Below, one piece after another: positions 35,711 through 40,195 of a stretch of DNA of 64,000 bases; positions within the stretch are counted from its first letter, which is position 1; the number at the start of each line of letters is the position of its first letter. The stretch comes from Candidatus Pampinifervens sinense (GTDB lineage Bacteria > Aquificota > Aquificia > Aquificales > Aquificaceae). The stretch spans positions 32,001-96,000 of the forward strand of contig JAXSPP010000006.1 of the NCBI GenBank assembly GCA_037927135.1, written 5' to 3'. The notes under the pieces were generated by a model. It saw only the letters and a program-made list of their open reading frames with translations. It ran no database searches and was not told the origin of the DNA. Both the position numbers and the translations under genes were made by a program.

Positions 35711-36604
35711 ATGAAGCTTTTTATGATAGGGTTGGGGAGGATGGGGCTTGGTATGTCAAGAAGACTCTCCAAAAAGGGGCATGAGGTCTTTGGCTACGAT
35801 GTGAGCGTGGAGGCCAGGGAGAGGGCAAAGGAATACATAAGGGTTCTTGAAAGGCTTGAAGAGCTAAAGGAACAAGAGGAAAAGGTCCTCTGGCTTATGG
35901 TACCTCATGAGGTGGTAGATGAGGCCATAGACAGCCTCAGGCCTTACTTGAAGGAAGGGGACATAGTCATAGACGGTGGAAACAGCTACTATAGAGACTC
36001 TCAAAGGAGGGCAAAGGAGTTAAAAGGAATAGGTGTTTATTTTCTTGATGTTGGTGTAAGCGGTGGAGTGTATGGAGAGGAGCTTGGCTACTGTTTAATG
36101 GTTGGTGGTGAAAGAGAGGCCTTTGAAAAGGTTGAGCTTATCTTAAGGGACCTATCTTATGAAGGCGTGGGCTATGCCTACCTTGGGCCATGGGGTGCTG
36201 GCCACTTTGCCAAGATGGTTCATAACGGCATAGAGTATGCTATGATGCAGGCCATAGGAGAGGGCTTTGAGCTTTTAAAGGAGAGCGGTTTTAACTATGA
36301 CCTGAAAGAGGTGGCACGTATATACAACACGGGCAGTGTGATACGTAGCTGGCTTATGGAGCTAACTCAGAAGGTCTTTGAGGACTTTGGAGACCTTGAA
36401 GGTCTGGAGGCCTATGTAGAAGACACAGGGGAAGGCCGTTGGACGGTGGAAGAGGCTATCAAAAGGGCTGTGCCAGTGCCTACCATAGCGGAGGCCCTCT
36501 TTGCCCGCTTTAGGTCAAGACAGAAAAACTCCTTTAGAGACAGGCTTTTGGCGGGCTTAAGGTATGAGTTTGGAAGGCATCAAGTAAGAAGAAAAGATGG
36601 ATAA
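35711..36604 (+). CDS. gnd: 6-phosphogluconate dehydrogenase (short type)
   Basis: GLGRMG, DGGNS, VSGG, KMVHNGIEY, FGRH. Confidence 0.95.
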   Translation: MKLFMIGLGRMGLGMSRRLSKKGHEVFGYDVSVEARERAKEYIRVLERLEELKEQEEKVLWLMVPHEVVDEAIDSLRPYLKEGDIVIDGGNSYYRDSQRRAKELKGIGVYFLDVGVSGGVYGEELGYCLMVGGEREAFEKVELILRDLSYEGVGYAYLGPWGAGHFAKMVHNGIEYAMMQAIGEGFELLKESGFNYDLKEVARIYNTGSVIRSWLMELTQKVFEDFGDLEGLEAYVEDTGEGRWTVEEAIKRAVPVPTIAEALFARFRSRQKNSFRDRLLAGLRYEFGRHQVRRKDG

Positions 36605-37931
36605 AAGCTTTTCCCTTTTTATCCTGGGTGGCACGGGGGACCTGGCAAAGAAGAAGCTTTTCCCATCCCTTTCAAGACTATACTCTAAGGGCTACCTTAA
36701 GGGCCTTGATAAGGTCTATTCCTTGGCAAGGAGCAAAAGGGAAGACTGGGAGCAGATAGTTTGCCAGCTTGACAGAGGCCTTGGAAAGCTTTGCAACTTC
36801 ATACCTTTTGATGCAAAAGACTGGAACTCCTACCTTGAGCTTGGAAAGGTCATAAAAGAGCTAAAGGGTCAAGAGCTTATATTCTTTTTATCCCTTAGCC
36901 CTTACCTTTTTGAGGATGCCATAAGAAACTTAGGGAGGCTTTTGAGGGACTTTACCAATCCAAGGAAGATAGTCATAGAAAAGCCCTTTGGCTTTGACCT
37001 AAAATCTGCCCAAAGGCTAAACGACCTGCTTTACAGATACTTTATAGAGGATGAGATATACCGCATAGACCACTTTTTGGGGAAGGACACCATCCAAAAC
37101 ATCTTTTCCCTTAGGTTTTCCAACACCATCTTTGAGGGCATATGGAACAGAAACTTTATAGACCATGTGCAGATAGTGGCCCTTGAGAAGGTGGGTGTGG
37201 AAGGGAGGGGAGAGTTTTATGATAAGGTGGGTGCCATAAGGGACATGCTACAAAACCATATGCTTCAAATGCTTGCCTTTACGGCCATGGAGCCACCTGC
37301 CCTGATGGAAGAGAGGTTTATAAGGGATGAGAAGGTAAAGGTCTTAAAGAACACAAGGATAGAGAGGCTTATCAGGGGAAGGTATGAGGGCTACACTTTG
37401 GAGGTGGGCAACGAAAACTCCAAGAGGGAGACCTTTGTATGTGCTAAAGTGCTTGTGGAAAACTTCAGATGGCAAGGGGTTCCCTTTTACCTTATGACGG
37501 GAAAGGCCCTAAAGGAAAAGCTAACTCAGATTGTAATAGTCTTCAAGGAAATACCTCAAGGCCTCACCAGGCTTTTGGACTGCAAGCCTCAGCAGAATAA
37601 GATCATCTTTCAAATGGCTCCAGAGAGCAAGCTTATAATAGCCTTTGACCTTAGGCCACCTACTGGAAAGCTTCTGTCTTGCCCTGTGGAAAGCCTTATG
37701 GAGTATAAATTTCCCACCGAGTTTGAGGAGGCCTATGAGGTGCTTTTGCTTGATATAGTGGAGGGTGATAGGTCCCTCTTTATAAGGGGTGATGAGGTAG
37801 AGGCCCTATGGGAGATAGTTCAACCATACCTTGACCAAGAAGAAGATCCCTTTATCTATCCCAAAGGTGTAATGGTGCCTCAGCCTGCGGTGGAATTTCT
37901 GGAAAGAGAGGGAAGAAGATGGATCCTCTAA
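36597..37931 (+). CDS. zwf: Glucose-6-phosphate dehydrogenase
   Basis: GGTGDLA, EKPFG, YRIDHFLGK, RDMLQNH. Confidence 0.95.
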   Translation: MDKSFSLFILGGTGDLAKKKLFPSLSRLYSKGYLKGLDKVYSLARSKREDWEQIVCQLDRGLGKLCNFIPFDAKDWNSYLELGKVIKELKGQELIFFLSLSPYLFEDAIRNLGRLLRDFTNPRKIVIEKPFGFDLKSAQRLNDLLYRYFIEDEIYRIDHFLGKDTIQNIFSLRFSNTIFEGIWNRNFIDHVQIVALEKVGVEGRGEFYDKVGAIRDMLQNHMLQMLAFTAMEPPALMEERFIRDEKVKVLKNTRIERLIRGRYEGYTLEVGNENSKRETFVCAKVLVENFRWQGVPFYLMTGKALKEKLTQIVIVFKEIPQGLTRLLDCKPQQNKIIFQMAPESKLIIAFDLRPPTGKLLSCPVESLMEYKFPTEFEEAYEVLLLDIVEGDRSLFIRGDEVEALWEIVQPYLDQEEDPFIYPKGVMVPQPAVEFLEREGRRWIL

Positions 37932-37934
37932 CTC

Positions 37935-38249
37935 AGGGTGTTTCAAAAATAGCCTGTGCTTTCACGCAGACTACCGCCCCCGTCCCCTGCAACGGGAACT
38001 AGTGCCCTTCTCGGGTCTCCCCACAAGCCCTGAAAGAGTTTCCCTTTCAGGACAGAGAGGTCCCTAAGGATCCTCTCAAGGGAGAGTGCCGTCAGCACCA
38101 CTACCTTGAGAACTCGCCATGGATTAAATATCCTCCTTGGCTCACTCCAATGGATATGTAGGCTGGTCTCTTTGCCTTGATAGTTTGAGAATGTAAGCTT
38201 AACGCTTATGGTTATCATCTTTAGGTAAGGTGGATTTTTGACACACCCT
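37935..38249 (-). mobile_element. Miniature non-autonomous element with 16-bp terminal inverted repeats and a TnpB-like remnant
   Basis: AGGGTGTTTCAAAAAT (37935-37950) vs reverse complement of 38234-38249 AGGGTGTGTCAAAAAT, 15/16 match. Confidence 0.75.
37943..38218 (-). pseudogene. Internally deleted TnpB-related ORF (N- and C-terminal ends fused)
   Basis: MITISVKLTF N-terminus joined to WRVLKVVVLTALSLERILRDLSVLK..QGLWGDP, recalled as the tail of thermophile TnpB-related proteins; no RuvC. Confidence 0.65.
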
Positions 38250-38259
38250 CCCCTTTAAC

Positions 38260-38534
38260 TTGACAAAGTATACGGAAGGTTATATAATAGATTAAAGTCA
38301 TTGGTGGTTCGGGGTTCTAAAGCCCCGTGAAAGGTCTTGACAAATGAAAAATTGTGTGTATAATAAAATAATTGGTGTCAGTTGAGGGGCATAAGGTCCC
38401 TTGTCATCTTGAGAGATGAATAGAAAACCTCTTGACAAAGGTGATGGGTTGAGATATAATTAATAAATGTATTGAGGGTCTAAAGGGCCCTTGATAAAGC
38501 ACCACTTGACAAAAGAAAAGTTCTGAAGTATAAT
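38260..38534 (+). promoter_or_regulatory. Four tandem sigma70 rrn promoters
   Basis: TTGACA-N16/17-TATAAT at 38260-38288, 38337-38364, 38432-38460, 38506-38534. Confidence 0.85.
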
Positions 38535-38628
38535 AATAATCCTGTAAAGGCTGTGAAAAGGAAAGGGCTAGAAGGCCCTTGATATCTTGGCAACTGAATA
38601 AGGAGGAAGGGCTCCTATAACTGGGGTT

Positions 38629-40195
<1,567 letters not shown>

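Follow-up and report, generated by a model that had tools for sequence, protein, structure and literature searches.

A Miniature Element Derived from a TnpB-Only Insertion Sequence with Terminal Inverted Repeats, Located Upstream of the 16S rRNA Gene in Candidatus Pampinifervens sinense

The Locus and Its Features

The stretch of DNA considered here, called the window throughout, comprises 64,000 nucleotides of Candidatus Pampinifervens sinense (Aquificota; Aquificaceae; NCBI GenBank assembly GCA_037927135.1, contig JAXSPP010000006.1, positions 32,001 to 96,000 of the forward strand), and its feature of interest is a miniature element, derived from an insertion sequence (IS) whose only gene encodes a TnpB-like protein, that sits between a presumptive zwf gene and the promoters of a 16S rRNA gene. 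The element spans positions 37934 to 38250 on the minus strand, a length of 317 bp when the outermost nucleotide at either side is counted, with limits given by end mapping and by alignment to full copies on contigs C9 and C5 of the same genome (G000). Since its gene strand is the minus strand, the right end (RE) lies at the left side in the window. The RE terminal inverted repeat (TIR), on the 3' side of the gene, occupies positions 37935 to 37950 (AGGGTGTTTCAAAAAT), and its left-end (LE) partner, on the 5' side of the gene, occupies positions 38234 to 38249 (ATTTTTGACACACCCT). These arms of 16 nt are complementary at 15 of 16 positions, just as reported in a preliminary description of the locus made from the sequence alone, and stand 283 nt apart. 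The element contains a 91-amino acid (aa) open reading frame (ORF; 37943 to 38218, minus strand) that joins the N-terminal ~20 aa and the C-terminal ~50 aa of a TnpB-like protein, the RuvC core being deleted, and a putative omega-RNA-like scaffold, a structured module of about 175 nt that runs up to the RE tip (37934 to 38109, minus strand) and was delineated with a covariation consensus and a single-sequence fold.

On one side of the element, an ORF on the plus strand (36597 to 37931), which from a reading of its translation, without a family search, we take to be zwf, encoding glucose-6-phosphate dehydrogenase, ends 3 nt before it. On the other side, motif matching places four tandem sigma-70 promoters on the plus strand (38260 to 38534), upstream of the 16S rRNA gene that starts at about position 38629. 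Their first hexamers lie at 38260, 38337, 38432, and 38506, and each promoter agrees at 12 of 12 positions with the consensus TTGACA-N16/17-TATAAT. The four promoters (window positions 38260-38600) are spaced 74-95 bp apart, and each forms part of a recurring unit in which a short stretch is rich in GC and hairpin-like (repeat families D1, D3, and D5). An Rfam scan of positions 37000-39000, with E values up to 1 admitted, scored the 16S rRNA alone and no known RNA family in the element.

The Miniature Copy and Its Parent

Chance is ruled out as the source of the inverted repeat by the frequency of its 16-mer, which, at one mismatch or fewer, recurs in five genomes, 10 times in G000 and 23, 96, 34, and 18 times in four congeners, far above the 0-4 occurrences of a reversed control pattern. 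The 91-aa ORF aligns by BLASTP with the 503-aa parent protein in two separate segments: aa 31-81 correspond to residues 440-490 of the parent (44/51 identical, E 3e-27) and aa 1-29 to residues 7-37 (17/31 identical, E 3e-6). The separation of these matches means that the protein has lost its central part, and with it the RuvC core, which bears out the earlier reading of the ORF as the joined ends of a TnpB-related protein. The residues D221, E284, and D353 are all missing, a Pfam search of the ORF found no match, and its product is probably not functional as a protein.

The parent was found in the window's own genome, an assembly of 12 contigs that is 99.96% complete and for which G050 provides a complete, one-contig sister genome. 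A DNA search of G000 with the element returned eight matches, including two long copies (G000:C5:75208-76751 and G000:C9:2865-4357), both of which align with the miniature copy at its two ends and place the parent at about 1.55 kb, with further copies in relatives. The sole long ORF in each of the two long copies encodes 503 and 487 aa, and about 27 bp are missing from the 5' end of the C9 copy. It had been predicted that full-length copies would carry the same inverted termini and a TnpB-related protein, and such copies were indeed recovered in G000, G050, and G069. Another miniature copy (hereafter, mini), of 203 bp, is located at C1:79226-79428 of G000, and the TIR-bearing subfamily as a whole occurs in 7 of 25 genomes of the genus. 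With a length of 317 bp, TIRs that agree at 15/16 positions, a target-site duplication (TSD) that agrees at 8/10, identified parents, and tens of minis in congeners, window positions 37934-38250 are well supported as a miniature inverted-repeat transposable element (MITE), i.e., a non-autonomous, internal-deletion derivative of a 1.55-kb, TnpB-only IS.

A metagenome scan with the 16-mer returned 121 stretches, mostly chance matches from unrelated habitats, among which only L227, L261, and probably L270 are members of the family. Two metagenomes contain the locus itself on DNA contigs that cover it piecewise, with breaks within the repeat, and viral contigs yielded one distant protein relative and no right-end match.

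Two further arrangements of family sequences were also encountered. At L012 (G000:C5:111513-111608), a solo right-end fragment of 97 bp is fused directly to a promoter-like site, TTGACA...TATTAAT, upstream of a small FeoA-like ORF, and this remnant may supply or border the ORF's promoter. At L181 (G065:C46:3738-6436), two facing element ends, 2.7 kb apart, surround a 100-aa TnpB-like remnant and a gene for a 630-aa tetratricopeptide-repeat protein; the arrangement could represent two remnants or a composite with a captured host gene.

The TnpB-Like Protein of the Parent

TnpB, from which Cas12 descends, is regarded as a passenger that aids the persistence of transposons mobilized by Y1 or serine transposases. 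As judged from profile matches and a structural model, the one gene of the parent element encodes a TnpB/Cas12f-like RuvC protein of 487-503 aa that lacks the zinc ribbon. It scores above the cut-offs of the NCBIfam models TIGR01765 (60.6 bits, cut-off 47.25) and TIGR01766 (66.6 bits, cut-off 32), the latter titled ‘IS200/IS605 family accessory protein TnpB-related’, and these two models together mark it as a member of the ‘T. tengcongensis transposase’ family. The guided_TnpB model NF040570 scored 63.8 bits, below its cut-off of 100, and a Cas12f2 model likewise remained below its cut-off, while the Cas12f1-like TNB domain of Pfam (PF07282) was matched at profile positions 1-28 of 60 alone, with 20.2 bits relative to a cut-off of 26.3. 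In an alignment of 14 family members, the RuvC triad D221, E284, and D353 (P0001 numbering) is invariant, and no zinc-ribbon cysteines are conserved between E284 and D353. The AlphaFold2 model, with a mean predicted local distance difference test (pLDDT) score of 67 and values below 50 for residues 421-503, shows an overall WED-REC-RuvC fold like that of TnpB and Cas12f. Specifically, a Foldseek comparison of the model with the Protein Data Bank (PDB) matched Cas12f over ~390-445 aligned columns (best E 8.4e-11, for 8j1j_B; TMt up to 0.55, for 7wju_A), and further matches were to Cas12k, the TnpB of ISFba1 (6.6e-6), and the TnpB of ISDra2 (4.7e-5). A profile search of PDB sequences gave one weak match, to Cas12f1 (E 0.019).

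The family is a large one, with 1284 proteins at E ≤ 0.001 among the candidates scored and a protein match in 67 of 178 genomes of the phylum. Outside Aquificota, the nearest relatives, at 59-63% identity, belong to Thermoanaerobacter, Caldanaerobacter, and Caldicellulosiruptor, among others, where their source names are ‘IS605 OrfB family transposase’ or ‘TnpB-related protein’. Among the 15 pairs formed by six intact copies, the ratio of nonsynonymous to synonymous substitution rates (dN/dS) is 0.08-0.22 over codons 1-420. Over the tail of the gene that overlaps the structured module, dS is lower, and 14 of the 15 pairs have ratios of 0.45-0.82; the ratio of the fifteenth is undefined, its dS being 0.

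A Structured Module at the Right End

The last ~175 nt before the right end form the best-conserved part of the family, and they are retained by many minis, including the one in the window. In full copies, this module overlaps the last ~75 codons of the gene, and the protein C-terminus encoded in the overlap is modeled as disordered. Covariation was assessed with 24 of 37 right-end sequences, the other 13 having been left out for deleted or unrelated interiors. RNAalifold placed 51 pairs in eight helices, with 98% of cells paired, and compensatory change was seen in 18 pairs, compared with 9.0 ± 1.9 in column shuffles (0 of 500 reached 18) and 0-5 in slid structure controls. The window's own copy folds as a single sequence at -83.4 kcal/mol (z -3.44). 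This RNA-like overlap with the 3' part of the gene is the arrangement known for the guide (omega) RNAs of TnpB, from which we infer that the module may serve as the omega-RNA scaffold of the TnpB-like nuclease.

Ends, Target-Site Duplications, and Target Choice

When the two ends of all copies are mapped in gene orientation, the element consensus reads G-AGGGTGT[TG][TC]C[AC]AAAAT ... ATTTTTGAAACACCCT-G. Immediately beyond the repeat, 24 of 27 left-end flanks have a G, and 24 of 28 right-end flanks likewise have a G when read on that same strand, so that the outermost position is not inverted-symmetric. Perfect direct repeats flank seven of the eight two-ended, full-length copies (one in G000, six in G050, and one in G069), with a length of 9 bp in four and 10 bp in three; copy L052 has none. 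Among 17 minis, three have perfect 10-bp repeats, the window copy matches at 8/10 positions, and 13 match at six or fewer, bringing the perfect duplications to four cases of 9 bp and six of 10 bp. Such 9-10 bp flank repeats are TSDs and thus point to integration by a staggered cut.

For the window copy, the preliminary description had noted no clear duplication. A degenerate one exists, nonetheless, with its RE-side copy at positions 37924 to 37933 (TCCTCTAACT), overlapping the zwf stop codon at 37929-37931, and its LE-side copy at 38251 to 38260 (CCCTTTAACT). The two agree at 8 of 10 positions, each lies 1 nt outside the repeat, and none of 600 mismatched flank pairings reached eight matches. 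The last base of the LE-side copy, T38260, is also the first base of TTGACA, the -35 hexamer of the first rRNA promoter.

That position follows a tendency of the family. A target motif was sought in 27 left-end flanks, after two of 29 had been dropped as ends of a neighboring element, and the counts out of 27 (T-17, 18; T-16, 18; G-15, 14; A-12, 16; A-11, 17; G-10, 16) spell TTGnnAAG. In the left-end flank consensus, the duplication starts directly after TTGTCA, and strict TTG[TA]CA stands in register in 7 of 27 left-end flanks versus 3 of 28 right-end flanks. The element's 5' end tends to lie 10 bp from TTG(T/A)CA. On the opposite strand, this motif reads CTTGACAA and is a -35 box directed outward, so that the duplication abuts a -35 box firing away from the element. 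At L049 and L146, two elements lie in tandem in the order RE-[duplication]-LE, with one copy of the duplication between them, which is the pattern expected if a second insertion had reused the same motif-defined target.

It had also been proposed that empty zwf-rrn sites would define the ends, the TSD, and the target-adjacent motif (TAM). The search for such a site met a different gene after zwf in G050. Among the flanks of the G050 insertions, one site was usable in G000, and the miaB-side flank of the C5 copy showed no synteny in five congeners. In G000, a 30-bp stretch (C7:78280-78309) that begins TGGGTGTG on the element strand lies where G050 carries L052, the full element with no duplication, and it may be a footprint, a decayed remnant, or the outcome of a deletion made at insertion.

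Relatives with Other Ends and Comparison with Known Systems

More distant family members, delimited by alignment of copies within genomes, are 45-50% identical in G130 and G132 and 56-63% identical in Firmicutes. They start with AGGAGG(G)T.A.AACAGTT and finish with a hairpin followed by TTTGG(A/T)TGACCAGG, and neither a clear inverted repeat nor a duplication was seen in those of G130, G132, and the Firmicutes. In Caldanaerobacter subterraneus, the TnpB-like gene is preceded by the 3' end of a serine-recombinase-like ORF, and members of the distant subfamily in congeners directly adjoin a gene with a resolvase domain. Since these relatives have neither TIR nor TSD, the inverted ends and duplications are a derived feature of the Aquificota subfamily, in which, on the evidence of the aligned ends, the usual IS607/IS1341-type termini have been replaced by 16-bp TIRs.

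Like the IS607 and IS1341-group elements (the latter of the IS200/IS605 superfamily), in which TnpB occurs with or without a serine or Y1 TnpA, the Aquificota subfamily possesses a protein of the same family, a region of putative structured RNA that overlaps the 3' end of the gene, a subterminal hairpin near the right end, and a short motif 5' of the site as a possible TAM. Unlike them, and unlike IS200/IS605 elements, it has 16-bp TIRs and, in seven of eight full copies, 9-10 bp duplications. IS200/IS605 and IS607 elements have neither TIRs nor TSDs (PMC13565253; PMC6188088), as the former, a 2026 review, states for IS200/IS605, and its matched passages do not mention prokaryotic TnpB elements with duplications.

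The combination of a TnpB-type gene with inverted ends had been called atypical in the preliminary description. It is less atypical when set beside the work of Altae-Tran et al. (2023, PNAS; PMC10691335), which describes six DDE-associated TnpB branches with inverted terminal repeats, as well as solo TnpBs with such ends, and reports that TnpB is common in Aquificae and that no more than 250 bp separate the gene's 3' end from the transposon end at most TnpB loci. The Aquificota element resembles these in having a TnpB-type gene inside inverted repeats with its 3' end near the transposon end, and the solo copies described there are presumed to have moved in trans. It differs from the DDE-associated branches in that the genomes examined yielded no DDE partner bearing these ends, and its zinc-ribbon-less family otherwise has IS607/IS1341-type ends.

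Two further systems offer partial parallels. The PATEs of haloarchaea (PMC3119063) are likewise internal-deletion derivatives of IS605/IS1341-type elements, but have subterminal palindromes, no TIR, and no target duplication. Similarly, Fanzor1 is a TnpB homologue inside TIR transposons with target duplications (PMC3627910); those elements, however, are eukaryotic and have a separate transposase, whereas the present one is bacterial with a single gene. In the literature searched on TnpB in relation to inverted ends, target duplications, the Aquificae, or self-mobilization, no account of this element family was found, although it may be listed under one of the branches in the supplementary tables of PMC10691335.

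When the element is compared with the IS5 family, specifically the IS903 group and its MITEs, its duplications of 9 or 10 bp may belong to the same 9-bp class, and its termini may be of the same type as that of IS903 (G.G/C.TGT...AAA..T). Unlike in that group, no IS5/IS903-type transposase lies in the element, and neither PF01609 nor an IS903-like query found one in G000 or G050. A soil contig (L249) carries at positions 999-1890 an IS5-family element of 892 bp with two overlapping ORFs and 16-mer termini near-identical to those of the Aquificota element, which indicates that this type of terminus is used by IS5-family transposases, but it is flanked on both sides by CTAG rather than by 9-10 bp duplications.

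Proposed Mobilization in Trans and the Evidence Against It

The reading that seems on balance probable is that of a TnpB-only IS with DDE-type ends, a MITE moved in trans, and an omega-RNA module that takes part in homing. Staggered-cut (DDE-type) transposition would act on the inverted ends, and the mini, which has no RuvC core, would have to be moved in trans. The likeliest mover would be an IS5/IS903-like transposase, although none was found in G000 or G050; it is favored by the published explanation for solo TnpBs with inverted ends (PMC10691335) and by the presence of proteins of the same architecture in elements that have no such ends. The guide of the omega RNA would correspond to the DNA just beyond the right end, i.e., the target duplication and the bases downstream of it. 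An empty site would then read TTGTCA followed by the guide match, or TAM plus target, and the nuclease could thus cleave a site that the element has left and bring the element back, in the manner of canonical TnpB. The preliminary description had envisaged much the same parent, an RNA-guided nuclease with DDE-type ends mobilized in trans. The TIRs and the 9-10 bp TSDs uphold the part that concerns the ends; for the mobilization, no transposase that matches them was found in G000 or G050, so that movement in trans is a matter of inference.

A number of observations weigh against this reading. The duplication is lacking in 13 of the 17 minis, possibly through recombination between copies or mis-joins in metagenome-assembled genomes. 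Covariation cannot separate an RNA from a structure in single-stranded DNA, and no transcript was seen, with 0 reads in two metatranscriptome runs from a study in whose DNA the locus occurs, at a sampling of about 3/100 that is uninformative either way. TTG(T/A)CA is no more than a candidate TAM. The search for a mobilizing transposase counts in the same direction. In G000, no match was found to Y1_Tnp (PF01797), Resolvase (PF00239), DDE_Tnp_1 (PF01609), ISAs1 (NF033564), or rve (PF00665), and in G050 none was found to Y1, DDE_Tnp_1, ISAs1, or rve, with many transposase families outside the search in both genomes. An IS903-like protein of the congener G047 occurs in 50 of 178 genomes of the phylum and is absent in G000, G050, G066, and G068, and a soil IS5-like ORF used as a query found no match in 25 congeners, G000 and G050 included. 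Facing TIR pairs within 5 kb, among the hits listed for G050 and G069, each enclose either a mini or a TnpB-like gene. One other IS is present in G000, an IS982-like element, but its ends (ACGCCGAGTGAGAAATT) are unrelated to these TIRs, and its duplications measure ~21-25 bp.

Related searches gave a similar picture. Resolvase, absent in G000, is represented in G050 by two genes that lie outside the elements. None of 29 fetched loci with the G047-type IS903-like protein has the ends of the TnpB element, and no DDE transposase was seen next to, or between, identical ends among the listed TIR pairs of G050 and G069, in 79 metagenome loci, or in viral contigs; in none of the genomes examined does a transposase gene lie between such ends. 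Comparison of G000 with itself revealed no further repeated mobile element in the assembled sequence, and most of its contig ends fall in the IS982-like element. An ISAs1 partner had been suggested by the CAGGG ends and 8-10 bp duplications of that group, and NF033564 found no match in G000, G050, G065, G068, or G069.

Alternative Explanations

Could the TnpB-like protein itself be the transposase? According to this doubtful alternative, the RuvC protein, with its RNase H fold and D-E-D triad and perhaps together with its RNA, would bind the ends, read the TAM-like TTG(T/A)CA, and make 9-10 bp staggered joins, and full-length copies would move the mini. The presence in G050 and G000 of the TnpB-like gene or a mini alone between the ends, with no candidate transposase found, is in keeping with it, as is the finding that the contig ends and repeats of G000 reveal one other IS family, whose ends are different. 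Copies within a genome differ at dS values of 0.17-0.63 and yet have perfect duplications and a dN/dS of ~0.1, which argues that diverged lineages kept moving while the protein was under selection; the catalytic triad is invariant, and the target motif occupies the TAM position of the empty site. Purifying selection is, however, equally expected for a homing nuclease, and most transposase families lay outside the search. Moreover, proteins of the same family and architecture, 45-63% identical, reside in elements with neither TIR nor TSD, some of them with a serine recombinase, and the TIR subfamily has no extra domain. We know of no TnpB that has been shown to transpose. The protein is also reported as dispensable for transposition in a passage of PMC13565253. 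The full form of the proposal, a single-gene, self-mobilizing transposon in which a protein of the Cas12-ancestor type would bind its own ends, choose -35-like TTG(T/A)CA sites in the manner of a TAM, and keep its guide-RNA module, with the window mini as its satellite, is slightly more doubtful still.

Movement in trans by an IS5/IS903-like enzyme must also be set against two readings of lower probability. It is improbable that the mini has been retained as a functional RNA or promoter element, whether as a guide-RNA-only locus, as an insulator upstream of the first rRNA promoter (P1), or as a source of antisense RNA to the 3' end of zwf. Its structured module is intact, many minis keep that module through compensatory changes, any transcript that extended beyond the right end would lie antisense to the final zwf codons, and the element occupies position -36 relative to a consensus promoter. 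Against this, the site lacks conservation, with a different gene after zwf in the closest relative, G050; the duplication has decayed, the location follows the general target habit of the family, and no transcript was seen. Least probable is that the IS982-like element supplies the transposase for the TnpB-like element and its minis. This element is the sole other multi-copy IS, with at least 13 intact copies in G050, it breaks most of the G000 contig ends, and it is present in all seven congeners with TIR elements, but it also occurs in 19 of 24 congeners, so that its co-occurrence is of little weight. A 12-14 nt stretch from the LE interior (CCACCTTACCTA...) recurs near its start codon, whereas its ends are unrelated and its duplications far longer than 9-10 bp. 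One case in which it seemed to be bounded by TnpB-element ends, a 1265-bp stretch of G050 with a 282-aa DDE gene, was rejected when 14 aligned copies showed the IS982-like element's own ends, nested in a mini.

The IS982-like element merits a brief description of its own. It measures ~960 bp and encodes a DDE transposase of 282 aa that is only weakly IS982-like, with 28.5 bits relative to a cut-off of 130, and its direct repeats of ~21-25 bp are unusually long in several copies. At least 13 near-identical copies occur in G050 (loci L203-L215), the element is also found in G000 at C1:79488-79875, and the ends of contigs C1, C2, C3, C4, C5, C6, C7, C8, C9, C10, and C11 of G000 fall in it. The shared 12-14 nt stretch is subterminal at the LE of the TnpB-derived elements (e.g., L054; window positions 38222-38233) and corresponds to codons 5-9 of the IS982-like transposase gene; it may reflect chance or a shared binding site.

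Significance

Within one protein family, the ends switch from the IS607/IS1341 type to TIRs with TSDs, while the putative guide-RNA module and the TAM-like motif, in register with the duplication, are kept, which would provide a natural test of OMEGA homing logic in the setting of cut-and-paste chemistry. The lack of any visible transposase in a complete genome where copies have moved recently likewise raises the question of whether the TnpB-type enzyme itself transposes. For annotation, the element accounts for a family of short repeats in Aquificota genomes. Finally, precise insertion at the upstream edge of -35 boxes, which here belong to the cell's strongest promoters, is a habit that could influence how genes are expressed in hot-spring bacteria.

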